A stretch of 35,100 nucleotides of DNA from an uncultured Deferribacteres bacterium (GCA_964014485.1 CAXHAT010000077.1:1-35100); one strand, 5' to 3'. Counted from the first letter of the stretch, positions 3,297 to 35,047 are shown. Made by a program: numbers and translations. The notes: generated by a model from the letters alone, not told the origin.

Positions 3297-6200
3297 ATGA
3301 CGACCACAATAAATGAGACCATCCAAGAAGCACAAGCGGCGATAGAGAACAAGGATTTCGAAAAGGGGAGGGCGTTGCTAACGCAAGCTCTCCAGGATTC
3401 GCCGAACGATCAAGTCATCAATAAGTACGCATTGTACTACCTCTCTTTTATTTCTGACAGTTACGAAGCTTGTTTCGATTACGGTCAGAAATTCCTCGCC
3501 GAAATAGAAGCCGCCGAGCATTTACGCGAACGCGAAGTTGTTGAAGAGCGGCTGACAAAGATTACGCCCAAATTGATCGAGTACGCTCGCGATCTTCCTG
3601 ATAAGGAAAAGGCGAAAGAAATCTTGCAAAAAATCGTTGCTTCAGGCCGCTCCAACGGCGCTGCGGCGCAGGCGCTTTCCGCTCTGAAACCGTCGGCTCC
3701 AAAAGCAGAGCCTAAAAAGGCAAAGTCTTCAAAAAAGACGCCCCGGCCGGTAGCGCCGCCTTTGCAAAAAAAGCGCGTTTCCGAGAAGAGCGAAAAACCG
3801 GCAAAGCCGCAGAAGAACAAGGGCGCCAAAGGTATAAATTTGTTGCAAGACCTCAAAAAAACGCCTGAAAAATCAGAAGTTCCGCATAACGATTCCTGGA
3901 CGACGTTCTTCAAATCCGCCGAGCAACTGACAAAAACATTCAACGGTTATGTCGATGAGTTAATTCAGATCTGCGAAGAAGAAAGCGCGGTTTCTCAGAA
4001 GAAAACCAAAAGTTTGCAGTACGCGAAAGAAATGCGTGAGCAATGGGAGCCGGAACTGCCTTCGAAAATCTTCCTCGCTCCAGCCGTCAGAACGGCAGTC
4101 GATATTATTAAACTCTTGTTTAAAGATAACAAATTTAAGGAAGCGTTTTATTTTTCCAATGTTTTCGCTGAGATGGGCAAAGCGCTTGTTTCACAAAATC
4201 AGGAGCGCTACCAGAAAACTTTTCGGCAATTGGTTAAATTCGCAGCCAGATCGTATGTCGGCGAACGCCTCAATGAGAATGCAGCCAATAACAGTGTTTT
4301 CTTGAGTGTTAGCTTGTCCAATCTTGCTCAAGATTTACGCACGAATTGCATGGACGGGGCTTTGGGCGTTTATTTTGACAATGAGGGTCAAGAGTTCAAA
4401 GCAAATCCGGAGCCTGACCAGGATTTGGCCGCCGCCATTATGAGCGACGCGCTGCAGTGGGGAACGGATTGTTTTCTCCAGCGTCTTTTGGACGAAGCGC
4501 CGGAAGAAGTAGAGAATTTCATCCGCGACAATTTGGGTGAGTTGAAACGGTTTGCGGACGTTGAAGCCTGGGCGCAGAAGTGGCTTCGTTCGGTAAAAGA
4601 CGAAAGCGTGACGGCCGCCTTGCAAGAGTTAATCCCTTCCGACGACAAACGTGAACCGAAGCCAAAAACTAACGTCCGCGCTGAATTGAAGCAAGCCGCC
4701 GAGAATCGCGATTTTGACGCGGCGGCTGCATTGCTGGAAGATGAAGTCGATTTGGTTGTTAAAAACCTTCAGCAAAGATCGAAAGAACGCTTTGTTTACA
4801 AACGGCCTCAGCAGCCGAGATTTCGCGACTTTAATCTTTACAAAGCATTCGAAACGCTAACGCAAAACCTGGATTTTGATTTAGCCGGACGAGCCGAGTA
4901 TACCGCAGCGATTGAGAAGGCCAAAGACATATGGCTCGCGGAAATCGAGAATTTGGATATTCAGGAGTGGATCGCGTATTTTTATATCAGAGTGGACGGT
5001 TTGGTCGCGGCTGAAAGAATGCTCGAACTGCTCAAAAACCGCCGCAAGAATACGCGCAAAAAACTATTCGCATATTGGAACCTTGCGGTCATCCAGTTTC
5101 GCAAAGGCGATCTCAAAGGCGCTTACAAGAACCTTCATTCACTTCTTCTTTCCGGGGCGAGCAGCGAAGAACTTTCGAGCGTGCTTCTTTCCATGGCCCA
5201 CAAGCTTAAGAAACGCAATGATTTCTTGAAAATCGTTCAGCGCAGCCTGAATGATGAACTTTTGCCGCTCTCGTTTAAAATCGCCCATGATTACGGCGAC
5301 AGTCTTTTGCAAGAGCATTTCTTAAATCGAATATTGAAAAATCCCGGCTGGCAATTGCCGGATTATCGCGAAACGCTGAACGACATTTCTTTGAAAAAGA
5401 CCGTCAACAAGGCTGTCATCGAAGGACACGTCGATCAACTTGTCACCTGGCTAAAAGACAGGATCAAACTTTCGCCCGGCTATGTGCCGAATTACAATGA
5501 ATTAAGCCGCGTGCTGGAATACCATTGCATGGATATTGAAGGGGCGTATTATACGCTTCGCGTGGTGGCGCAAAAGACTTCGGACGCCGACGGTGAAAGA
5601 ACGCGCGCAAAACAACGCATGGTGGACAGCGTTTGTCGAGAACTGCTTAACTTTTGCCGTCGCAATGAGCGGCCAGACTTGGGTAAACGAGCTTACAAGC
5701 TGGTCCGCAGCGCGAATGTTAGCCCGGATTTGCTGCGACCGTTTGAAGATTACGCTTCGGCTTCGGACGTTCGGATGAGTGATACGGCCGAGATTCATGC
5801 GATCACGAAGACAGAGGACGGCAAGTGCGGGATTTTCATCGATCACGAGAATTTGGTGAAGTGCCTGCATCGCGTTAATACAGATCGCGGCTACAGCTAT
5901 CCGAAATATCAAGACAAAACACAGTGGTTGTCGGAAATCATTCGATCGTTGATCGATGAAACCGAGCGTCGCATCAAACGTCCGGCTTACCGCGTTGCCG
6001 TCGCTTTTTGGCGGCGAAAAACCGAAGCGGATTATGGCGTTGCGTATTCGATGCATGATTTTGTTCTGCGCCAGCCTGAAGATATTAAGCAAGGCAACGC
6101 CGTTGATTTTAAGGTTGCCGACGAAGTTCGTCGTGCGCAATTGCATGCTCTGAGTGAAAAAACAAAACTCACGGATGTGATTATCGTTTCCGGTGACGGG

Positions 6201-6344
6201 GACTTTGCGCATATGGCGCGCAACCTCGTACATGAGGGTGTTAACGTGCAAATTTGGGGCGGCAGCAAAGATACGAGCCAACATTACGCGGACATCGTTG
6301 GCGCCGGCAATATTATCTCAATTGACGACGTTTGCGGTTTGTAG
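3297..6344 (+). CDS. Large helical/TPR-like repeat protein with C-terminal NYN (LabA/DUF88 PIN-fold) nuclease domain
   Basis: The C-terminal ~170 aa carry IFIDHEN, GNAVDFKV, IIVSGDGDF and GVNVQIWG, typical NYN acidic motifs. TPR-like segments occur at the N-terminus and mid-protein (AYWNLAVIQFRKGDLKGAYKNL), with a Lys/Pro-rich linker. Confidence 0.8.
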   Translation: MTTTINETIQEAQAAIENKDFEKGRALLTQALQDSPNDQVINKYALYYLSFISDSYEACFDYGQKFLAEIEAAEHLREREVVEERLTKITPKLIEYARDLPDKEKAKEILQKIVASGRSNGAAAQALSALKPSAPKAEPKKAKSSKKTPRPVAPPLQKKRVSEKSEKPAKPQKNKGAKGINLLQDLKKTPEKSEVPHNDSWTTFFKSAEQLTKTFNGYVDELIQICEEESAVSQKKTKSLQYAKEMREQWEPELPSKIFLAPAVRTAVDIIKLLFKDNKFKEAFYFSNVFAEMGKALVSQNQERYQKTFRQLVKFAARSYVGERLNENAANNSVFLSVSLSNLAQDLRTNCMDGALGVYFDNEGQEFKANPEPDQDLAAAIMSDALQWGTDCFLQRLLDEAPEEVENFIRDNLGELKRFADVEAWAQKWLRSVKDESVTAALQELIPSDDKREPKPKTNVRAELKQAAENRDFDAAAALLEDEVDLVVKNLQQRSKERFVYKRPQQPRFRDFNLYKAFETLTQNLDFDLAGRAEYTAAIEKAKDIWLAEIENLDIQEWIAYFYIRVDGLVAAERMLELLKNRRKNTRKKLFAYWNLAVIQFRKGDLKGAYKNLHSLLLSGASSEELSSVLLSMAHKLKKRNDFLKIVQRSLNDELLPLSFKIAHDYGDSLLQEHFLNRILKNPGWQLPDYRETLNDISLKKTVNKAVIEGHVDQLVTWLKDRIKLSPGYVPNYNELSRVLEYHCMDIEGAYYTLRVVAQKTSDADGERTRAKQRMVDSVCRELLNFCRRNERPDLGKRAYKLVRSANVSPDLLRPFEDYASASDVRMSDTAEIHAITKTEDGKCGIFIDHENLVKCLHRVNTDRGYSYPKYQDKTQWLSEIIRSLIDETERRIKRPAYRVAVAFWRRKTEADYGVAYSMHDFVLRQPEDIKQGNAVDFKVADEVRRAQLHALSEKTKLTDVIIVSGDGDFAHMARNLVHEGVNVQIWGGSKDTSQHYADIVGAGNIISIDDVCGL

Positions 6345-6723: not shown

Positions 6724-8052
6724 ATGAAAAGGATCACCTTGTACCTGCTTTCCCTCTCCCTAATCGCAGCTTTAGCCGGCTGTGAAAACCCGACGCCCGT
6801 CGCTAACTCAAACGATGAAGCGGAATTGGCCGCTTCCGCCGATGCTGTGACGCTGACAAAAGCAAGCTCAACGGTTATGTTTGAAGTGACATTGAAAAAC
6901 CTGGCCCCGGCAACTGCTCCCGGCGCCAGCCAGATTTTCTCTCCCGCCGTTCTCGCCACGCATGACGATGATTTTCACATTTTCGAAGTCGGGGGCTACG
7001 CGTCCAGAGGTTTGTCGCAAGTTGCTGAAGACGCCGTCAACGGCCCAATGGTCGATTTTCTGAGCAATTCGGATGATGTTTATGATGTTGTTGAAGGCGA
7101 CGGCGTGGTTCCGCCAGGCGCTTACGGCAAGTTTTACATCGACGCTAATGCCGACGCAAAGTATTTTTCTTTGGTCTCGATGTTGGTCAATACCAATGAC
7201 GGCTTTGTCGGCGCCAATGCGATTAAGCTCCCGAATCGCGGCGAAGCGACTTATTACCTGAACACCTATGATGCAGGCACGGAGAAAAATACGGAACTGC
7301 ACGCTCATATTCCTGGCCCGTGCTGCGGCAGCGGCGGCGTTCGCGTCCCAACGCGTGAAAGAATTAAGCGCCACGCAGGCATTACCGGCGTCGGCGACCT
7401 TGACCCCGCCGTTTATGACTGGGAAGATCCTGTTGCGAAGCTGACGATTCGCAGAATCAACCCAACATATGAAGTGAAAATTGAAAATATGACTCCGGCG
7501 ACTGGTCCCGGCGCCAGTCAGCCAATGTCGCCGCCGGTGCTCGCCACGCATCGCGAGGGTTATCACATGTTTCAAGTTGGGAAAAAAGCTTCTTATGAAC
7601 TGGCGCAAATTGCACAAGACGCAATTAACGGCCCGATGGTAGACAGGTTGAGCAGTTCTCGCGATGTGTTTAGTGTAACGGAAGGCGGCGGCGTGATTCT
7701 CCCCGGCGGTTACGACAGTTTTAAGATTGAAGCCAGATCGCGCTTCACGCGCTTGTCTCTGGCGACAATGCTCGTGAACACCAACGACGCATTCGCCGGT
7801 CTCGACGGTTTGAAGCTGCCGCGTTACGGTTCGACAACGGTTTACGGCAGCGCCTACGATGCAGGCTCGGAAAAGAATACCGAACTGCGCTCCGACATTC
7901 CCGGCCCCTGTTGCGGCAGCCCTGGAAACGGCACTTCAACAAGTGAAAAAATCGCACATCACCCAGGCATTCTCGGCGTCGGCGACCTGTCCGTCGCGAC
8001 TTATAACTGGGACGATCCGGTTGTCAAAATCACGATAACGCGGGTCAAGTAG
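6724..8052 (+). CDS. Lipoprotein with two tandem Spondin_N-like domains
   Basis: Lipobox LAGC and RBS AAGGAGG. Duplicated motifs: SP.VLATH, MLVNTND.F.G, YDAG.EKNTE, IPGPCCG, YxWxDPV. Units start at about 6880 and 7468. Confidence 0.85.
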   Translation: MKRITLYLLSLSLIAALAGCENPTPVANSNDEAELAASADAVTLTKASSTVMFEVTLKNLAPATAPGASQIFSPAVLATHDDDFHIFEVGGYASRGLSQVAEDAVNGPMVDFLSNSDDVYDVVEGDGVVPPGAYGKFYIDANADAKYFSLVSMLVNTNDGFVGANAIKLPNRGEATYYLNTYDAGTEKNTELHAHIPGPCCGSGGVRVPTRERIKRHAGITGVGDLDPAVYDWEDPVAKLTIRRINPTYEVKIENMTPATGPGASQPMSPPVLATHREGYHMFQVGKKASYELAQIAQDAINGPMVDRLSSSRDVFSVTEGGGVILPGGYDSFKIEARSRFTRLSLATMLVNTNDAFAGLDGLKLPRYGSTTVYGSAYDAGSEKNTELRSDIPGPCCGSPGNGTSTSEKIAHHPGILGVGDLSVATYNWDDPVVKITITRVK

Positions 8053-8060
8053 GCTTATAA

Positions 8061-8096
8061 ACAAAAAGGCGGTAAATTACTTTACCGCCTTTTTGT
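8061..8096. terminator. Bidirectional intrinsic terminator
   Basis: ACAAAAAGGCGGTAAA-TTAC-TTTACCGCCTTTTTGT between convergent genes, with A/T tails on both sides. Confidence 0.88.
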
Positions 8097-8124: not shown

Positions 8125-8469
8125 TTATTCGTCTAATTCGGGGGGGTCAGAGTTTTTACCAGTAAGATTGAAAAGGCCTTTATATGCACCGCCAGTGACT
8201 CCAGCCCCAGCCGCACCGGCTCCAGCCGCTTGGCCGCCTTGTTCTGCGGACTGTGCTAACATAACAAACATTTCATCAACCGGCCCCAACGCTTGCCCGT
8301 CCATGCCGAGAAAATACGAGATGAGTTTGCCGATCAACTCCCAGACTACGTAAGCGGCTAATCCGCCTAATAATCCGCTGATTGTAAGCAGTTTTACATC
8401 TAGTACATAGTCGAGCCACCGCGCTTGCAGCGTTTTGCCTTCGCGTCTTTCTTGAGAAGCCTTTGCCAT
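8125..8469 (-). CDS. Small hypothetical membrane protein with Gly-zipper-like TM and Gly/Ala-rich segment; last gene of the sigma/CHAT cassette
   Basis: Strong RBS (AGGAGGG) before the ATG, 15 bp after the CHAT stop. Contains hydrophobic LLTISGLLGGLAAYVVWELIG and GGQAAGAGAAGAGVTGGAY, and is followed by a terminator. Confidence 0.72.
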   Translation of the reverse strand: MAKASQERREGKTLQARWLDYVLDVKLLTISGLLGGLAAYVVWELIGKLISYFLGMDGQALGPVDEMFVMLAQSAEQGGQAAGAGAAGAGVTGGAYKGLFNLTGKNSDPPELDE

Positions 8470-8484
8470 GACACCCTCCTAAAT

Positions 8485-11400
8485 TCAATCGAACATCAAA
8501 TTGTTCAAAGGTAAATTTTCAGCATACCCAATCAAAATGAAAGGCGCCCAGAAGTAGGGATGCGGTTGTTTTAATGTTGAACTCTCGCGTAATCGTTTAA
8601 TTTCACTGACTTGAGCTTCCCTTAGTGCTTCAGCAAATGAGGAAAAACCGGCCTGAATATTTTTGAGCGCTTTTTCCATAAGTATTGCAGTCGCTTTTTG
8701 ATCTACATCCCATAGTGTTGCCACGAGACTTGGCGCTCCAGCAGTTCTGAATGCGTGCGTAAGGCCGACTAAGCCTTCGCCATGGTAGTGCTTGCCGACG
8801 CCTGTTTGGCATGCGGCAAGAATTGCCAATCTGGTTTTCTGAAACTTAAGTTCCATAACGTGATGCATCATCAGATCTTTAGAATCGGAATTGAGAAGAA
8901 ATTTTGTTTCAAGAGGGTCGCGCTCATTAACTTGACAATGTAAGCCGAAGAAAAGGAATCGATAATCATTCTTTAAATGTTCTCGAACACTGTCTAAGTT
9001 AGCATCGTTTCCTCTGAGTAATCTAGAAGCTGGGAAAATGTCTATCGCTTTCTCGCCGATTTCCGTCATCCACTGCAAATCCTGATTCGGATCGACGATT
9101 GCGAGTAGGTCGCCTTGCATCTGACCTCCCGCATCGGTCATGTTGAATACGGCTGTCTTGGAGTGTAAGAAAGCCTTCGCGCTAGATACAAATGCGAAGG
9201 GAAGTTCTTCAACCAAAAAAGAATTTTTTGATACGCTTTTGGTTAACGGAAGTGCAGCAAACGGCAAGTAGTGTAATGAGCCGTCGGGAATCAAATAAAC
9301 GGTCTTGTATGGCTTAATTCGATGCCAGACTGGGTCAATTAAAAGAGCGCTGAGCTCACGTCCGACAGAGGTTGAATGCTCAAATACGCCTTTCGAATTT
9401 TTATTTACTTCTTCTTGAAAGCGATCTTTTTGTTCGGCGCCAATAGAAATTCGAAATTCCCGAACTAACGAATCCAGAACGTCTTTCGGGCCGTCTGTTC
9501 TGTACATGTCTACGGATTCCGTTGTCAGCGTCCAAATGATGGTTTCTCTTGGAAGGATCTGATACATGACGAGAATTTCATCTGTCGACAACTCTTGCTG
9601 TATTTGGCTAGTGTCGACGACCAAAGACGAATCGGAAAAATTAATCTGCGTTTCTTTCCTCACTTTTTCTGAAGTCAGGCTTTCTCGATCTTCAATGTTG
9701 ACCTCGCCGACAAGAAAATCATGTAGAGTCCTTCCCTTAAATCGTTCAGAGACCTCGAGCGTAGATCGAGCGACGTCTGGTGCATTAGACGCGAGAATGG
9801 CCTCGATATAGTCTTCATATAAACTTTGCTTTTCAGCAAAATAGGCCGTTCTTGATATGCCGCTCTTGATTTGACCTCGCCATTGTTCAACATACTTCGT
9901 TGCTTGCTCAAAAGCCAAAAGCGCGAGTTGGTTTTTGCCTAGTTCACGCTGCGCTTTCGCTTTTCCGTGCAAAGCTCTCCAATGCTCATAATTCATATTT
10001 TCTGAAAAAGTGGCGATTTCCAACGCTCTGTCGTAATTGGATAATGCTCCGTGAGCATCTTGCAGCATCAGCTTGCACTCGCCCATCGCCAAATTGGATT
10101 GCAGTCGCGCGATTTGCAGACCGCTTTGTTCGCTAAGCTGAATAATTTCCTGCAGCAGTGGTAATGCTTTTTTCGGACGGTTTTGTTTTAACAAAGCTCT
10201 TGCAAGCATCAGTCGCGTTTCAGCCCTTCTTTTTTCTAAATCGTCGCCTCCTTCAAATGTCAAAGCGGTTTCGAAATAATGTAATGCACTATCGACTTTG
10301 CCTATTTGCGCGAACACTTCTCCTTTGTTGGCCAAGGCTTCAGCGATATTCGCGGACTTCCCGTGACGCTTGAACATCCGCAAGGCCTTTTCTTGAAACC
10401 TAAGCGCCTGATCGTATCGCCCCAGATAGAGATAATTGTTGCCGATATTGGTGTATTGAGCCCCTTGTTGTAGATTGTTTTGAATTTTCTGGAAAAAACC
10501 GAGACTGGCTTCATGCTCTTTTATTGCTTGTTCGAACTCCCCGGCGTCGCTGAGTATAAAACCGGTTAGCCGTTTGATCGCGCCGAGTTTAGGACGATCT
10601 GCCTGTGATTGTGAAATTTCTGTGCAAAGAGTGAGGGCGTCTAAAGCGGAAGATAAATCTCCAGTTTCATAGTAAATTCTGCTCAGGATAAGGCGGGCGT
10701 CAAGCTCAAGCTTTTTATTACCAAGTGAATCAACCAGTCCTAAGGACGTCTCAATCCAATGCAGACTGCTGTCATAATCTCGTAAATAGTAGCAGGCTTT
10801 ACCAGTATAAATAGAACTCAAAGTTTCATAGAATAAATATTGACCCTCCTCAGCGAGATCATGCGCTTTTTGAAAACTTTCAATACTTTTACTAAAGTTC
10901 CAACTTTTGAATCTTATCGCGCCGATGGCAATATGAGTAGCAATTTGACCCTGCACAGCCCCCAAATTCTCATAGCGCCGCAGTGCTTGTTTTAAATAAT
11001 TTTCCCCTAGGGATGCTGGCAGTGATTTCGCTTTTTGGATGAGCAGACGGGCTTCTATAAAGCTTTGTTTTCTTTCTGAAGGCAAAGCGCGAAACAGGCA
11101 GAATTCGTTGGATAGGACACAATGTTCAGGATGGTTTTCGAAAACGTTCTGCAATGAATCAAGTGACTCAAATCCGTCTTGGTCCAGCACGTGAGCAACG
11201 AATATGCTATTCAAATACTTGGTGAAGTCAGCATTGAAGTGCTCGCCGTCGGGGCAATTGAGAACTTTGTGAGTAGACGTCTCGGGGCATTTATCATGGC
11301 TAAAACAGAAAGTTTTCCGAGAATCTTCTCCGGCTACGTCGCTCGATTCGAAGTAGAGAATGGCTTGCGGAGAAAGATTCGAGTCATGCTGCCGGTAAGC

Positions 11401-11511
11401 CAAAAGCGAGATGATGAACACAAAAAGTACAAAAGTGAAGACGGCCTTTCGACCTCCGCTCATAAAACTAAAAAGCTTTTTCATCTCGAGTACGCGTCTT
11501 TGTTTATTCAC
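8485..11511 (-). CDS. TPR-CHAT (caspase HetF-like) protease with N-terminal signal/TM segment
   Basis: Multiple TPRs; CHAT motifs SERFKGRTL, LIPDGSLHYLPFAAL, His in FFGLHC (codon 8938-8940), Cys in LAACQTG (codon 8809-8811), ATLWDV and HPYFWAPFILIG. The true start may be ATG 11484 (MKKLF) or 11463. Confidence 0.9.
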   Translation of the reverse strand: MNKQRRVLEMKKLFSFMSGGRKAVFTFVLFVFIISLLAYRQHDSNLSPQAILYFESSDVAGEDSRKTFCFSHDKCPETSTHKVLNCPDGEHFNADFTKYLNSIFVAHVLDQDGFESLDSLQNVFENHPEHCVLSNEFCLFRALPSERKQSFIEARLLIQKAKSLPASLGENYLKQALRRYENLGAVQGQIATHIAIGAIRFKSWNFSKSIESFQKAHDLAEEGQYLFYETLSSIYTGKACYYLRDYDSSLHWIETSLGLVDSLGNKKLELDARLILSRIYYETGDLSSALDALTLCTEISQSQADRPKLGAIKRLTGFILSDAGEFEQAIKEHEASLGFFQKIQNNLQQGAQYTNIGNNYLYLGRYDQALRFQEKALRMFKRHGKSANIAEALANKGEVFAQIGKVDSALHYFETALTFEGGDDLEKRRAETRLMLARALLKQNRPKKALPLLQEIIQLSEQSGLQIARLQSNLAMGECKLMLQDAHGALSNYDRALEIATFSENMNYEHWRALHGKAKAQRELGKNQLALLAFEQATKYVEQWRGQIKSGISRTAYFAEKQSLYEDYIEAILASNAPDVARSTLEVSERFKGRTLHDFLVGEVNIEDRESLTSEKVRKETQINFSDSSLVVDTSQIQQELSTDEILVMYQILPRETIIWTLTTESVDMYRTDGPKDVLDSLVREFRISIGAEQKDRFQEEVNKNSKGVFEHSTSVGRELSALLIDPVWHRIKPYKTVYLIPDGSLHYLPFAALPLTKSVSKNSFLVEELPFAFVSSAKAFLHSKTAVFNMTDAGGQMQGDLLAIVDPNQDLQWMTEIGEKAIDIFPASRLLRGNDANLDSVREHLKNDYRFLFFGLHCQVNERDPLETKFLLNSDSKDLMMHHVMELKFQKTRLAILAACQTGVGKHYHGEGLVGLTHAFRTAGAPSLVATLWDVDQKATAILMEKALKNIQAGFSSFAEALREAQVSEIKRLRESSTLKQPHPYFWAPFILIGYAENLPLNNLMFD

Positions 11512-11706
11512 TACCTAACACTTTTTGTATAGGCTTATAAACTGGCGAAAAAGGCCGGTATTGTCATTCTGGAAGCATCTTTTTTGATCCGCCCCTTGAA
11601 CTTTTTAGCATGTTCTGTACTGGGCGATAACAAAGATTCTTTCAGTATGACAAAACGGGGCTGTTCGACGGCTCGAAAATGCAGTTTACAAAAAAGTGTC
11701 AGGTAG
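11511..11706. repeat. Nested inverted-repeat element (MITE/REPIN-like) filling the anti-sigma/CHAT intergenic space
   Basis: Outer arms CTACCTAACACTTTTTGTA (11511-11529) and TACAAAAAAGTGTCAGGTAG (11687-11706). Inner arms TTGTCATTCTGGAAGCATCT (11561-11580) and AGATTCTTTCAGTATGACAA (11634-11653). Confidence 0.7.
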
Positions 11707-11715
11707 AGAGTGTGA

Positions 11716-12696
11716 TTATTGATTCGAGAGAATGCGCAAATTGATTTTTGCGTTTTCACGCCAGAGCGATTTTTCATCGCCGTCGATTTCAAGATATTTT
11801 CGCCACTCGGCTTTTGCCTGTTCGACAAGGCCTTGTTGTTGCGTGGCAACCGCCAAATTGTACTGCGCTTCTCGAAAATCAGGGAATTGGGAGACAAGAT
11901 CGGTTAAAAGTTCCTTCGCTTGCTCCAAATCGCCTTTTTGCCAAAGACCGACCGCAACGTCATTCAAAATTTCTCTGTCATTCGGGGATTTCAGTAAAGC
12001 GGCGGCATAAAACGAATCCGCCCTGGCAATGTTTTTCTCTTTCAGCAGCGCATGGGTTCCCAAATAGTGGAGCGCCTTTTCGTTTTCGGGGTCGAGTTGG
12101 TGCGCTTTAAAAAGATCAGTTTTGACGGTTTCCTCTTCAGCGCCGTCTTCTTCTCCTGAAAGCGTCTGCGTAAACTCGCTGAACTCAAAGCCGCCGGACA
12201 GCCTCAATTCGTCCTGTGAATTGACTTGATGCGCAGCCTTCAGCGATTCCAGGCTGCTGAAAATCAACGCGTCGCTCTTATCGAGGGCGCTGGGTTTCAA
12301 TGCAAAAAACAAAAAAATGAGAAGCGCCCCAATAAACCCGCCTGAAAGAAGAGACCGTTTTCTATTCGCCCAAAGCAATGTCAGCAATGCCGCCATTCCA
12401 GCGGCAGCGGTTTTTTTTGAAGCTTCAGAAAACATCTTTTCCATCTGCCCGTCAACATCGATTTCGATTTTTTCCTGTTCGTCGAGTAATTCACCTTGGT
12501 ACGCCGGTTCTAATTCCTGACGGTGGAATGTTGCGGCGGTTTGAAAGCAGATCGCGCATTCAGTCAAGTGTTTCTCGATATGCTTTGCGGTTTCTTGTGA
12601 AGCGTCTCCTTCCAAATATTGCAGCAACAGCGCTTCTTCGGGATGAGCTCCGGCTCCGGCTTCGGTTACGTTTTCGTGCATCTCTTTTTCGTTCAT
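11716..12696 (-). CDS. Zinc-binding anti-sigma factor (zf-HC2/ZAS) with TM helix and C-terminal TPRs
   Basis: HPEE...HLTECAIC (HxxxCxxC), TM GGFIGALLIFLFFAL and TPR motifs (EILNDVAVGLWQKGD, EAQYNLAVA). It lies directly downstream of the ECF sigma gene. Confidence 0.85.
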   Translation of the reverse strand: MNEKEMHENVTEAGAGAHPEEALLLQYLEGDASQETAKHIEKHLTECAICFQTAATFHRQELEPAYQGELLDEQEKIEIDVDGQMEKMFSEASKKTAAAGMAALLTLLWANRKRSLLSGGFIGALLIFLFFALKPSALDKSDALIFSSLESLKAAHQVNSQDELRLSGGFEFSEFTQTLSGEEDGAEEETVKTDLFKAHQLDPENEKALHYLGTHALLKEKNIARADSFYAAALLKSPNDREILNDVAVGLWQKGDLEQAKELLTDLVSQFPDFREAQYNLAVATQQQGLVEQAKAEWRKYLEIDGDEKSLWRENAKINLRILSNQ

Positions 12697-12789
12697 TTTA
12701 CGGTTCCTTTTTCCAATACCTTCTCCTCAAACCGTCGGAAATAGCGGTTCTATCAAGGTTGGACACTTCGGGCTTTTTGCCCTCCCGAT

Positions 12790-13500
12790 TTATTTTTTTC
12801 CAAGCCCTTTTTTCAAGAGACAGTTTCGCAGCTTTTCTTTCAGTGCGGAAATAATGTTGGCGATGCGTTTTGTAGACAGCGCGCTGAATTCAGCAAAGCC
12901 GGCGATTTCCTGGGCTTGAAAACCGCCGTATAAATAATGTGAAAAAATGACGGCGTTACGCTCAACCGAGCGTACTCTTTTGAGGATGCGTCCCATGCAA
13001 TCGTCAACTTCTTCGGAAAGCTCTGCAAAATTCTGCTCATCTTCCAAAGTCTCGCTGCCAAGCAAATCTTTTAGTGCGTGCTCTTTGTCCCCGTTCATCG
13101 AGGTCGTTGTTTTGTCAATGGACGTTACGCCGCCTGGCGCTCTGCGTCGGCCCGCAAGCGTGTAGTGCAGGTGATTGAGCACGATTCGCGTCGCGATGAT
13201 GCGAAGATATTTGATAATGGATTGTTGGTTTTTCGCCTGAAAGTTTCGCAGCGCTTTGCAATCTTTTTCGCGCAGCCGAATGAAAACGTCTTGAAAAAGA
13301 TCGTCGCGCTCATTCAGCCCTTCTTTAAAATTGAGCCGTCTGCATTCTTTGACGATAACCGCGGCGATGAATTTTCCGAACCTTTGCACGAACTCGCGCC
13401 AGGCGAGCTCGTGGTCATTATTTTCCGCGAGAAACTTGACCAGTTCGTTGTGGGAATAATCGGGGAGTCTTTTGGGGGACGACAAAACTATGCGCTCCAT
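12790..13500 (-). CDS. ECF-type sigma-70 family RNA polymerase sigma factor
   Basis: Region 2 signature AWREFVQRF...DDLFQDVFIRL...YLRIIATRIVLN and region 4 HTH GFQAQEIA...TKRIANIISALKEKLR. RBS AAGGAGG upstream. Confidence 0.88.
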   Translation of the reverse strand: MERIVLSSPKRLPDYSHNELVKFLAENNDHELAWREFVQRFGKFIAAVIVKECRRLNFKEGLNERDDLFQDVFIRLREKDCKALRNFQAKNQQSIIKYLRIIATRIVLNHLHYTLAGRRRAPGGVTSIDKTTTSMNGDKEHALKDLLGSETLEDEQNFAELSEEVDDCMGRILKRVRSVERNAVIFSHYLYGGFQAQEIAGFAEFSALSTKRIANIISALKEKLRNCLLKKGLGKK

Positions 13501-13550: not shown

Positions 13551-13577
13551 TAGATAGGGCGATTTGAAAAAATTCCC
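13551..13577 (-). promoter_or_regulatory. Candidate ECF-type (autoregulatory) promoter of the sigma cassette
   Basis: Minus strand GGGAAT-N15-TATCTA about 50 bp upstream of the sigma ATG. It resembles the general ECF GGAAC/T...GTCT architecture. Confidence 0.35.
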
Positions 13578-26826: not shown

Positions 26827-27051
26827 ATGAGAAGCACCATAACCATTCCGGATGACCTTGTTAATGCGATTGACCAAATCACGGGCCGGAAGGATAATAT
26901 CGAAAAATTGATTGAACTCCTGCTTCGAGAATATCTTACCGAGGAGAAGAAAAAACAACAATCTTCAAAAGATCTAAAGATATTGCGTGAGAATTCGAAA
27001 TTTTTGAACAGGGAAGCTCAAGACGTGCTTGATTACCAGGTCAATCTATGA
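26827..27051 (+). CDS. Ribbon-helix-helix (CopG-like) antitoxin
   Basis: [19 protein letters not shown] start; ATGA overlap with the toxin gene. Confidence 0.8.
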
Positions 27052-27386
27052 AGCGCGGGGAGCTGTACCGGGTATACAAAGGCTCAAAGCATGATCCCAA
27101 AAAGCACAGAGTGTTTGTCGTTGTCAGCCGCCAGGTGTTAATTGAATCCAGATTTTCTACGGTCATTTGCGCGCCAATATATACGCGGTATGATGGCTTG
27201 TCGACTCAAGTGAAGGTAGGAATTGAAGACGGATTAAAGCATGACAGCGCCATACACTGTGATGAGCTTATCAGCATCCCCAAAACAACGCTTACGAATT
27301 TTATCGCTACTCTATCCGTTGACAAAATCAAAGAGCTGAATGAAGCATTACAAACAGCGATTGGTTATAGAGACAAAGTTGAATAA
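27048..27386 (+). CDS. mazF: PemK/MazF-family endoribonuclease toxin
   Basis: MKRGELY...[10 protein letters not shown]...VICAPI...[16 protein letters not shown]...LNEAL; 112 aa. Confidence 0.88.
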
Positions 27387-32092: not shown

Positions 32093-35047
32093 ATGCAGCC
32101 CGATTTAGAAAACGCCGAAACAACCGCCAACGCGCCAACCAAACCCCAAAAAACAAAACTCCAAAAACTCTGGCGATGGATTTGGCCCGAGCCAAAAATG
32201 TCTTGGCAAGAAGCGCGCGAAAAAATGCGCCAGGATTGGCAAGACGCTTTCACTTTTGATGAACGCGGTTTGTGGTTAAGTCAAGTTTTGCTCGGACTGA
32301 TATTTTTGACGATTGGTTTGTTCTTGGCACAAATTGAAAAGCTTGAAGTGATAGGGACAACAATTTCAGCGGTGGCAGGCGGAAGTTTTGTTCTCATCTT
32401 TCGGTATTATATACGATGGCTGCGCATAGTCTTGTACTCTCGTGGAAGAGCAACGGCACGGAGGATTGCATTTAGCATTTATCTCATCGCTGTCGCTTTC
32501 GCTGTCGCTGTCGCTGTCGCTGTCGCTTTCGCTGGCGCTGGCGCTGTCGCTGGCGCTGTCGCTGTCGCTTTCGCTGGCGCTGTCGCTTTCGCTGGCGCTT
32601 TCGCTGGCGCTTTCGCTGGCGCTGTCGCTGTCGCTGGCGCTTTCGCTGGCGCTGGCGCTTTCGCTGGCGCTGGCGCTTTCGCTGGCGCTGTCGCTGTCGC
32701 TGGCGCTGTCGCTGGCGCTTTCGCTGGCGCTTTCGCTGTCGCTGTCGCTGGGTTAAGATGGCTTGGAAATTTACTAAGACGCGCTGAATCAACGCAAGCC
32801 CGCGCGAACGACAATGAAGCGCTTATAAATCGGCAGGACTTGCAGCGACCGTATCCGGAAGTACACCATGGGCGCGCCGTAGTCAATGGTAGAATGGAGA
32901 AGTTTTTTCAGGACCAGAAACGTTTTACCATCGGCATGGCCGGGCGGCGCGGCTTGGGCAAAACCAATTTGCTGCACCGGTTTCGCGAGCATGTGCTGGA
33001 AAATTTTCAAAAGTACGACGACGGCGTCGGAGACGAACAGCGGTTTAAGACACTCAAAGAGCAGAATAACTTGCGCAAACATCGCCGTCAACGTTTGCCG
33101 CTGTTCTCGCCTATCCCAACCGAATTCGGCGAGAAGTCGTTTCTACTCGCCCTGCTGGAAAAATTGGCGCAGGAAGTCAATCGCTGCCTGACATTACTCT
33201 TGCCGCCGATTCAGCCGTTTGCGGTTGAGCAGGAATTACAGAATAAACGCCTTTTGCTTAAGAAAGCACACCGCTATTATTTGTTTTTGGGCGGTTTGCT
33301 CATCATCGGAAATATCGCGCTGCATTGGCAAACGCCGCCATTCAGCCAGATGCGCGAGCAATGGTTCGCGGTAAAAAGCGATTCAACCAAAACAGATCAA
33401 ATCTCTACAAGAGAACCGTCGCTCTTACGTCAAGAATATCGCGATTCCTTGTATCTTGATCTAGCGCCGACAATTCAGAGCCTACAAGATTCCTTGCAAA
33501 AAATCGACGCGCTGCTTGAGCCAGACGTGAGCAGCACCGATTGGAATTTTGATGAGGAAAGGTCTGGCGATTTTACCCGATTCTTCATCATTCAGGCAAC
33601 GTGGGATTCTCTGCGCCGCGCCCGGCATTGGCCGTCTAAACCGAGTATAGATTCGCTCTTCGCACAACTTGATTCGGCCAGAATTCAGCTCGGCGATATT
33701 GCGGCGGTCGAAGCGAGATATGATTCCTTGCAAGACACATTGCGGCAAGCGGAGTTTTATTTGTCTGAGTCGCCAGAATCGAGCATTGATTGGAGTTTGA
33801 GCTTAGTCATCTCGCTGTGCGTGATTTTAGGTTTTCCAATCGCCGCTGGCGTGATTTATTGGCGTACGGTCGAGGGCGATCAGCGCTTGAATCGCAGTCT
33901 TTACGATCCCATGCGCAACGAGATCGCGCTTTATCATCGCACCAACGAGTTGCTGGAGCGCTTGAGATATCAAATGAGTTTTGGCGAGGGGCAAGAGACC
34001 GGGGTCAAGGGCGGCGGCAGGTGGTTTTCCTTCGGGCGCAAAAAATCCAATCTGGTCAGCCGAGAGCTAAGGCCGTTCACCACCCTTAGCCTGATCGACG
34101 AGTACCGCACCTACGTACAGGAAGTACTTTTCTATCTTAACCGTGCGCTGGAAGTCGATGAACGAGAAGTGGGCACGCCCAGGGAGCAGGTCAAAATCGT
34201 TATCGCTATCGATGAGTTGGACAAGGTGCTCGACACGCAGCGCCTGCACGAAATGCTCAAGAGCATGAAGGCGATTTTTGAGTTGGATCACGTCTACTAC
34301 TTGCTCTCCATCAGCGAAGACGCGCTGGAGACCTACCGTCTGCGGCACATGGAAACCAAGAACGAAATCGACAGCGCTTTCACGCACATTTTCACCCTGC
34401 CGCCCATGGAAGCGGCGGGTTCGCTGGCGTTTTTTCGGCAAGAGAAAACAAAAGTCAAAGACCAGCTTCTGCCCGCGGCCGTCGTCTTTGGCGGCGGCGT
34501 CCCGCGCGACATGCACCGGCTGGCGCAAATGATGAACGTACGCGAAGAATGGGATTCGCTGGCGCGCTGCCTGCAAGATTTGGAACGGGAAGACAAAGAC
34601 GCACTCTGCGATCTCTTCCAGCAAAACCCCCTGCTCTCCGATGAATGGAAGCACACGCTCACCCAAAGCGTCGCCGCCATGCGCTGCGAAACGTCAGACG
34701 AGGTTGAAAAGATTTTGCGGCGAGTCGAGCGAATGACTTTGGAGCAATTTGAAGCGGGAAATCCGTGCAGTGGAGAACCTGCCAAGAAGCTTTATCACCA
34801 GGTGCAAACCTACGTGCGCGGTATGGCGGTCAAATCGTTCATTTATGCGCGCGTCGGGCAGGCTCAAATTCCAGGGCAAGTTGCCGCGCTGCCGCAAAAT
34901 GAAGAGTCATTGATGCACGCCATTGAAAGCTGGCAATCGATCACGAACTGGCTGGTGCAACTCGAACCGCTGCGCGGCGCCATCTTCAACCTGTCGCACA
35001 ACCCGCTCGGCGTTTGGGATACGCTGAAGAAAAACGCCAACGCTTAG
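32093..35047 (+). CDS. Membrane-associated KAP-family-like P-loop NTPase
   Basis: Walker A GRRGLGKT (32942-32965) and Walker B IVIAIDELDK (~34200) are separated by two TM helices, the KAP hallmark. Also GGVPRD motif and N-terminal TMs. Confidence 0.75.
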   Translation: MQPDLENAETTANAPTKPQKTKLQKLWRWIWPEPKMSWQEAREKMRQDWQDAFTFDERGLWLSQVLLGLIFLTIGLFLAQIEKLEVIGTTISAVAGGSFVLIFRYYIRWLRIVLYSRGRATARRIAFSIYLIAVAFAVAVAVAVAFAGAGAVAGAVAVAFAGAVAFAGAFAGAFAGAVAVAGAFAGAGAFAGAGAFAGAVAVAGAVAGAFAGAFAVAVAGLRWLGNLLRRAESTQARANDNEALINRQDLQRPYPEVHHGRAVVNGRMEKFFQDQKRFTIGMAGRRGLGKTNLLHRFREHVLENFQKYDDGVGDEQRFKTLKEQNNLRKHRRQRLPLFSPIPTEFGEKSFLLALLEKLAQEVNRCLTLLLPPIQPFAVEQELQNKRLLLKKAHRYYLFLGGLLIIGNIALHWQTPPFSQMREQWFAVKSDSTKTDQISTREPSLLRQEYRDSLYLDLAPTIQSLQDSLQKIDALLEPDVSSTDWNFDEERSGDFTRFFIIQATWDSLRRARHWPSKPSIDSLFAQLDSARIQLGDIAAVEARYDSLQDTLRQAEFYLSESPESSIDWSLSLVISLCVILGFPIAAGVIYWRTVEGDQRLNRSLYDPMRNEIALYHRTNELLERLRYQMSFGEGQETGVKGGGRWFSFGRKKSNLVSRELRPFTTLSLIDEYRTYVQEVLFYLNRALEVDEREVGTPREQVKIVIAIDELDKVLDTQRLHEMLKSMKAIFELDHVYYLLSISEDALETYRLRHMETKNEIDSAFTHIFTLPPMEAAGSLAFFRQEKTKVKDQLLPAAVVFGGGVPRDMHRLAQMMNVREEWDSLARCLQDLEREDKDALCDLFQQNPLLSDEWKHTLTQSVAAMRCETSDEVEKILRRVERMTLEQFEAGNPCSGEPAKKLYHQVQTYVRGMAVKSFIYARVGQAQIPGQVAALPQNEESLMHAIESWQSITNWLVQLEPLRGAIFNLSHNPLGVWDTLKKNANA
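32489..32752 (+). repeat. In-frame hexanucleotide microsatellite (GCT-GTC/TTC/GGC) x44 encoding Ala-X repeats
   Basis: 264 nt in which every other codon is GCT and the alternate codon is GTC, TTC or GGC (last one GGG). Confidence 0.95.

Follow-up and report, generated by a model that had tools for sequence, protein, structure and literature searches.

A four-gene cassette of an uncultured Deferribacteres bacterium with the predicted parts of a two-protein DdvS/DdvA-type sigma factor switch

A four-gene cassette on the minus strand of a 35,100-nucleotide stretch of DNA from an uncultured Deferribacteres bacterium (GCA_964014485.1 CAXHAT010000077.1:1-35100; this whole stretch is called the window below) is read, with a probability of about 0.62, as a two-protein regulatory switch of the type of DdvS/DdvA of Myxococcus xanthus. 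The cassette encodes a sigma factor of the extracytoplasmic function (ECF) type, a membrane anti-sigma factor, a TPR-CHAT protease and a small membrane protein. In the proposed mechanism, the anti-sigma factor would hold the sigma factor by its zinc domain; on a signal, the separate TPR-CHAT protease, predicted to face the periplasm, would cut the linker of the anti-sigma factor after Leu179; with the TPR cap gone, RseP would gain access to the membrane helix, as has been shown for truncated DdvA, and the sigma factor would be released; and the freed sigma factor would transcribe from a motif behind its own gene, producing more anti-sigma factor, protease and small protein in a feedback loop. 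An RseP-like M50 protease is encoded in the genome.

The four-gene module is real and conserved. The sigma factor (236 residues, 12790..13500, minus strand) belongs to a divergent subfamily and matches TIGR02937 with E = 1.4e-9, below the family cut-off. Downstream on the same strand are the anti-sigma factor (326 residues, 11716..12696), which has the motif H43-x3-C47-x2-C50, a hydrophobic helix at 115-133, a linker loop at 156-183 and TPRs to the C-terminus; the TPR-CHAT protease (8485..11511; CHAT E = 1.6e-48), the start of which is unsettled between a GTG giving 1008 residues and an ATG at codon 10 giving 999, with a hydrophobic N-terminal helix at about 20-38 and a catalytic dyad of His858 (codon 8940-8938) and Cys901 (codon 8811-8809); and the small membrane protein (114 residues, 8125..8469), which has AGGAGG ahead of its ATG. 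The preliminary description of this DNA had named these four co-oriented genes, the intact His and Cys and a closing terminator, all of which are confirmed with coordinates on the minus strand, and the gene-neighbourhood comparison that it proposed as a check finds all four genes syntenic in three other genomes. Among the best 20 loci of the sigma factor subfamily, 13 have an anti-sigma factor and a protease downstream, four are ended by the contig and three have no adjacent protease; 20 more loci that were picked by protease similarity were excluded from this synteny test. The anti-sigma factor and the protease are separate open reading frames in all related loci examined, divided in the window by a stop codon and a gap of 204 bases.

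The cut site is predicted from covariation between the protease and the anti-sigma factor. The predicted specificity residue is the fourth after the invariant Trp934 of the protease (Gln938 in the window, codon 8698..8700, minus strand), and the predicted P1 residue of the anti-sigma linker is Leu179 (codon 12160..12162, minus strand). In 34 of 35 gene pairs, an acidic residue at 938 accompanies Arg or His at 179 and a non-acidic residue accompanies Met or Leu; the set omits pairs of which one member was missing from the fetched DNA, and locus L035, which has two cassettes. All 25 pairs of the first set obey this rule (12 proteases with Asp or Glu at 938 and Arg or His at 179; 13 with Ala, Ser or Gln and Met or Leu), as do nine of ten held-out pairs. 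Anti-sigma column 179 is the best of 191 columns in the first set, and, among 400 CHAT-domain columns, protease column 938 best predicts whether 179 is basic. Parsimony assigns three changes to 179 and four to 938, including those of the sister pair L034 (A/M) and L039 (E/R). Separase, which cleaves after Arg, has Asp at the column of Gln938, and two Csx29 proteins have Ser there, while craspases cleave after Met or Leu (PMC11506125). Both match the code, which predicts a cut of the window's anti-sigma factor after Leu179. Anti-sigma factors without an adjacent protease mostly retain Arg, His or Met at or beside 179, a pattern that agrees with cleavage by a protease from another locus as well as with a structural role. 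Together with the four-gene synteny, the covariation supports the earlier suggestion of a CRISPR-independent (clustered regularly interspaced short palindromic repeats) trans-envelope module in which the CHAT protease would probably clip the anti-sigma factor.

The predicted folds of the two proteins fit the two halves of DdvA. The anti-sigma factor model (predicted local distance difference test, pLDDT, 85) aligns over residues 140-326 to residues 95-283 of DdvA (8rot) with Z 17.1 and a root-mean-square deviation (rmsd) of 2.6 over 165 residues, ranking second of 48,161 chains. The protease model (mean pLDDT 85) has structural matches to Csx29, separase and DdvA, and its residues 219-995 align to DdvA 368-991 over 610 residues (rmsd 4.6, Z 21.5), the span that is defined as the TPR-CHAT unit of DdvA (PMC11506125). 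The two models together are predicted to cover DdvA in order, with a break inside the midrib helix at 267-304. In the DdvA structure, V129-P140 is the part of the linker that comes closest to the dyad, shortly ahead of the linker end at S143; Leu179 is five residues before the equivalent helix, which starts at 184, so that by this offset it would map to about the same stretch. DdvA was not among the Foldseek matches listed for the anti-sigma factor model; full-length-profile sequence searches of solved structures were dominated by generic TPR matches; and a search of solved structures with a profile of the linker did not have DdvA within the best 60 of 69 matches.

The anti-sigma factor has the features of zf-HC2 membership, namely HxxxCxxC in its N-terminal domain and a gene adjoining that of an ECF sigma factor, with a match to PF13490 at E = 6e-4 that falls just under the cut-off; H43, C47 and C50 are each retained in at least 90% of 32 anti-sigma factors, and the zinc domain is the likely site at which the sigma factor is held. 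Many anti-sigma factors of the family have two tandem zinc motifs (L045, L053, L066-L069, L075-L090). All 30 aligned relatives of the protease keep the catalytic His and Cys. The protease had been described as exported; its N-terminal hydrophobic helix, present also in most related proteases, is confirmed and is the single basis on which the protease is predicted to face the periplasm, as either a signal peptide or a membrane anchor. The CHAT domain of DdvA lacks the three-helix motif that separase and craspase have; as a comparison bearing on this trait, 30 cassette proteases have 128-154 residues between the end of the TPRs and the PD motif, and the paralog at C59 has about 260, a comparison of span lengths only. 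A pattern scan of genome contigs found no loci related to the protease.

The solved structures closest to the sigma factor by profile are AlgU/RpoE-type sigma factors; DdvS was not among the eight solved-structure matches, its presence in that structure set being unchecked. A promoter-like motif, GGGAG-N16-TGTCC (12761..12786, minus strand), lies six bases past the sigma stop codon, counted from the first base of that codon, and would drive the genes of the anti-sigma factor, the protease and the small protein, the position of the motif suggesting that the sigma factor uses it. By enumeration in 35 cassettes, GGAA-16-TGT occurs in 12 of 35 sigma/anti-sigma gaps compared with 5-7 in shuffles, and neither the region upstream of the sigma gene nor that between the anti-sigma gene and the next gave a shared motif. 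A matrix built from 15 sites and tested on 18 held-out gaps and 6252 upstream regions gives scores of at least 12 to 11 of the 18 gaps and to 56 of the 6252 regions. A fixed pattern drawn from the 35 cassettes themselves occurs no more than 55 bases from the sigma stop in 20 of those 35, in six of 20 later, separate loci and in 32 of 5178 genes of the genome. In a regulon scan of the 6252 upstream regions, three paralogous anti-sigma genes are in the top 14, with no clear further target set. A second and weaker candidate site upstream of the sigma gene, GGGAA-N16-TATCT (13552..13577, minus strand; score 11.2), is doubtful because the 35 cassettes share no motif in that position. The motif behind the sigma gene is taken here to resemble RpoE-type promoters, a likeness that agrees with the closest solved relatives of the sigma factor.

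The fourth gene, which had been called an orphan, is a regular part of the cassette. The 114-residue protein has one clear hydrophobic helix, a second segment rich in Ala and Gly, an acidic Pro tail and no family match. Immediately after the three closest proteases (L050-L052, in genomes G012, G020 and G015, which are of one genus of another family), and with the order of the genes preserved, are homologs of 129 residues with 35-38% identity, with synonymous to non-synonymous changes of 34:15, 34:12 and 21:5. A profile of the small protein finds it in four of 125 genomes of the class (three of 124 besides the window's), always at the same cassette position, and the family is found only behind this protease clade, in which the window's protease groups with those of L050-L052 with 99% support and a long branch in a quick tree. 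A four-row profile finds seven proteins among 8000 scored in a large database, and the source of one homolog assigns it to candidate division KSB1, while the sequencing runs that contain the DNA are marine metagenomes from a single study, possibly the one from which the window itself comes; a single-sequence search of 5.8 billion proteins returned only the protein itself, Atlas matches were all below threshold, and a pattern scan of metagenome contigs found no loci of the small protein. Other protease clades are trailed by other small proteins, of two related two-helix types and one soluble repeat type, and in the last locus set six of six proteases are followed by a small protein; it is this recurrence behind several clades that marks the fourth gene as a regular part. 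The type A small protein has no detectable kinship to type B or C (probability 2.8 and 0.1), whereas B matches C with 97.5. A short Pro/acidic motif, a loose pattern checked with no control, is present in 21 of 21 membrane-type examples, at the N-terminus in two types and at the C-terminus in the window's. The small protein probably serves the switch as a partner or an output that is matched to the protease clade. In L056, L058, L059, L062 and L063, the CHAT gene is followed, instead of by the membrane protein, by small, basic, soluble proteins that carry a KDRG-type motif in repeat and may be peptide precursors.

Several observations weigh against a DdvS/DdvA-type switch with cleavage after Leu179. 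Cleavage and binding of the anti-sigma factor by the protease are predictions from gene sequences, and the column pair 938/179 was first spotted by eye. Kinship inflates the p-values of the covariation, so that its real weight is that of about three concordant switches against one discordant; the rule comprises about three independent events, one held-out pair (L094, E/M) is discordant, and protease columns 818 and 811 also track 179, through kinship. The placement of residue 938 in the S1 pocket is putative: it is probably not the equivalent of Asp2151 of separase, which binds P1 (PMC10317155) and, by a rough, inferred numbering, is four residues past the 938 column, where the window's protease has Ala. 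The catalytic His is followed by Cys in the window's protease, and Gly has this position in only eight of 30 relatives. In structural comparisons, separase and Csx29 have higher Z scores (27-29) than the 21.5 of DdvA, mostly at a larger rmsd or across no more than the protease domain (the fit to the separase protease domain has Z 29.3 and rmsd 3.2 over 323 residues), and OGT and PilF, which are generic TPR folds, tie with DdvA as matches to the anti-sigma factor model. The window's own promoter-like site has a modest matrix score of 9.8, and 202 of 6252 upstream regions reach 10. Twenty further loci found by the sigma profile alone have an anti-sigma factor in 18 cases and a protease in six; 15 of them offer 6.7 kb or more of room, and nine of these 15 lack a CHAT gene next to the pair. 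The link between sigma factor and protease is therefore strong but not obligate. As for DdvA itself, PMC11506125 reports that activity of its CHAT domain was not seen and that infection by Mx4 triggered no cleavage.

Covariation of this kind fits binding as well as cutting, and the linker could instead be a securin-like plug or grip in the active site that is not productively cut, with either the two proteins together forming a receptor that signals through a change of shape, or the anti-sigma factor restraining a protease aimed at other periplasmic proteins. Separase is bound by securin, a pseudosubstrate whose P1 is hydrophobic (PMC10317155), the lack of observed activity of the DdvA CHAT domain would be in keeping with a plug, and there are sigma/anti-sigma pairs without an adjacent protease. 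Such a plug is nonetheless judged unlikely: a pseudosubstrate should mismatch the pocket, whereas the acid-Arg/His and non-acid-Met/Leu combinations match in all pairs except one, the dyad is invariant, and truncated DdvA is a substrate of RseP (PMC11506125). If the linker is cut, another candidate for the site is Arg165 (codon 12202..12204, minus strand), a near-invariant arginine (31 of 32 anti-sigma factors and 14 of 17 of a later set) in a separase-like S-x-D-x-x-R motif, which has an acidic P4 residue in 19 of 31 cases compared with 56 of 395 other arginines. The acidic P4 recurs in only five of 14 of the later set, Arg165 does not vary with the protease and is retained where no protease is adjacent, and its block is modelled as ordered, with pLDDT 95 compared with 75-78 around 171-190. 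Cleavage at Arg165 is thus very improbable, and this residue is more likely a structural or grip site than a cut site.

The preliminary description had proposed cell death or phage defence as the output, and the small protein, with its hydrophobic and Ala/Gly-rich segments and a type that follows the protease clade, could be imagined as a second substrate that the protease clips into a toxic product. DdvS/DdvA controls a CBASS-CRISPR island (cyclic-oligonucleotide-based anti-phage signalling system; PMC11506125), and the G+C content of the cassette (0.458) is below that of the genome (0.502). An anti-phage or cell-death system is nevertheless improbable. PADLOC at 1e-10 has no match for 79 of 84 neighbouring proteins (79 from 26 related cassettes and five from the window), the other five matching ATPase-type models that are read as ABC-ATPase-type cross-hits; with no defence genes among these neighbours, phage defence and cell death are unsupported for this cassette. 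The type III CRISPR genes of the genome are on another contig, C60 (13433-24781), as large fused RAMP proteins beside an insertion sequence element and unlinked to the cassette, and no cassette promoter motif was found upstream of them. Family and profile scans matched no toxin family to the small protein, the conserved tail of which, judging by its charge and the two hydrophobic segments, is probably cytoplasmic and away from the protease. The plainer reading of the purpose of the DdvS/DdvA-type switch is a response to an envelope signal with a small, largely self-contained output.

PMC11506125 leaves open whether a periplasmic CHAT domain acts as the first protease that releases a sigma factor, a question that is hard to test in DdvA because enzyme and substrate are one chain and the signal is not identified. 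The window has enzyme and substrate in separate genes of a minimal cassette, and the covariation names L179 and Q938. A broader and tentative generalization, considered possible but on balance doubtful, is that periplasmic, caspase-like CHAT proteases are dedicated site-1 proteases of a family of ECF switches, that a one-residue code insulates paralogs and predicts cut sites including that of DdvA, and that the small protein is a dedicated fourth part. If this were true, a clan CD protease would join the known site-1 enzymes, and there would be a rule for reading CHAT specificity. Insulation is a real question in this genome, since it has several paralogous cassettes (C98, C99, C59).

The genome encodes eight sigma factors of the subfamily and has 19 CHAT matches; across the phylum the subfamily is present in 53 of 167 genomes, none outside the class of the window. 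The paralogs at C98:12741-20600, C99:11421-19933 and C59:34251-39042 have a sigma or sigma-like gene, an anti-sigma gene and a protease gene in the same order. At C20:11232-13293, a sigma factor and anti-sigma factor with no protease have a high-scoring promoter-like site, and at C94:9366-14363 a TAG stop separates TPR and CHAT parts that face the sigma pair. In many cassettes, two further genes without annotation stand between those of the anti-sigma factor and the protease; the window has the minimal form. These extra genes, in type B and C cassettes (L032:7716-10004, L038:8380-10051, L039:7836-10757, G000:C99:13519-16327 and similar), encode proteins of 400-725 residues with N-terminal membrane helices and proteins of 130-330 residues starting MxPLHP-like, with a Pfam match for none of 15 tested. 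In one genus, a second, half-length sigma-like open reading frame is between the sigma and anti-sigma genes (L034:11222-11620, L037:11583-11984, L039:6357-6782).

In the window, the cassette stands between tolB-pal-cpoB-like genes and a spondin-domain gene. The closing terminator is an inverted repeat of 32 bases (8063..8094) with a fold of -25.5 kcal/mol and A/T runs on both sides, a two-way candidate that is likely to be common to the cassette and the convergent spondin-domain gene; a consensus-based terminator scan did not pick it up. The gap of 93 bases between the sigma and anti-sigma genes and that between the anti-sigma and protease genes are wide, and the first contains the conserved promoter-like motif, so that the cassette is probably not one simple four-gene transcript. 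The gap at 11511-11715 (minus strand) has a fold of -62 kcal/mol, a value with no shuffle control, and the corresponding gap of the closest relatives is only 44-82 bases. The convergent gene (6724-8052, plus strand) encodes a lipoprotein-like protein with two spondin domains. Elsewhere on the plus strand of the window are a 1015-residue protein (3297-6344; no PADLOC match) that has weak matches to TPRs and, at its C-terminus, a weak NYN/PIN-like match (E = 2e-4), a MazF/PemK-like gene (27048-27386) and a 984-residue protein with a KAP-family P-loop match (32093-35047; no PADLOC match at 1e-10).

The closest known system is DdvS/DdvA of M. xanthus, not type III-E CRISPR. DdvS/DdvA (PMC11506125, PMC6061681; PDB 8rot, 8rw5) has the same ECF sigma factor, zinc anti-sigma domain, one membrane helix, linker, TPR scaffold and His-Cys TPR-CHAT unit in identical domain order, with MXAN_7287 following ddvA. 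DdvA forms a dimer, each active site being turned towards the linker of the other chain. It differs in that DdvA is one chain, whereas the window has two genes and a protease with its own N-terminal hydrophobic helix; in its zinc site, which is of the CHCC type rather than HxxxCxxC; in the promoter of DdvS, which is GTAA-n16-CGT (PMC11506125), whereas the cassettes have G[GA]GA-N16-TGTC behind the sigma gene; and in its island, there being no CBASS or CRISPR genes near the window's cassette. Fused DdvA is confined to Myxococcota and one Comamonas (PMC11506125), and with this defining fusion absent, the window's module would work like DdvS/DdvA but is not a member. No description of a split DdvA-type module or of the 938/179 covariation was found in the literature searched, in which subscription journals were mostly uncovered. 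Csx29/Csx30/CASP-sigma, which the preliminary description had taken as the nearest model, gives way to the much closer DdvS/DdvA, for which the same logic has already been proposed (PMC11506125). It too has a TPR-CHAT protease that cuts a separate anti-sigma factor and relieves an ECF-like sigma factor (PMC10028731), and Csx29 shares the fold and a non-acidic residue at the Q938 column; but Csx29 is a cytoplasmic protein in complex with Cas7-11 that RNA triggers, whereas the window's protease has an N-terminal hydrophobic helix that suggests another location, and Csx30 is without a membrane helix or a zinc motif of the HxxxCxxC kind. No cas7-11, csx30, csx31 or other cas gene is among the 27 proteins of the window, and RAMP genes are only on C60. 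Separase, also of clan CD, matches the window's protease without gaps from the Cys to the LW motif but is eukaryotic and Arg-specific. ECF54 (PMC7826278 supplement) has an ECF sigma factor near a TPR-CHAT gene, and proteolytic control has been proposed for it, but in the portion available it has no anti-sigma factor, its neighbours are of the carboxypeptidase-regulatory and subtilase kinds, its promoter is GTATCAG/CTCC and it occurs in Actinobacteria only, whereas an anti-sigma factor follows the sigma factor in the window and in most of the later loci. In RseA/DegS/RseP, as in the proposed switch, a single-pass anti-sigma factor is cut first by a site-1 protease that is a separate protein and then by RseP (PMC10028731, PMC11506125); the site-1 enzyme is an HtrA serine protease there, whereas that of the window's cassette would be a cysteine protease of clan CD that has a TPR sensor.

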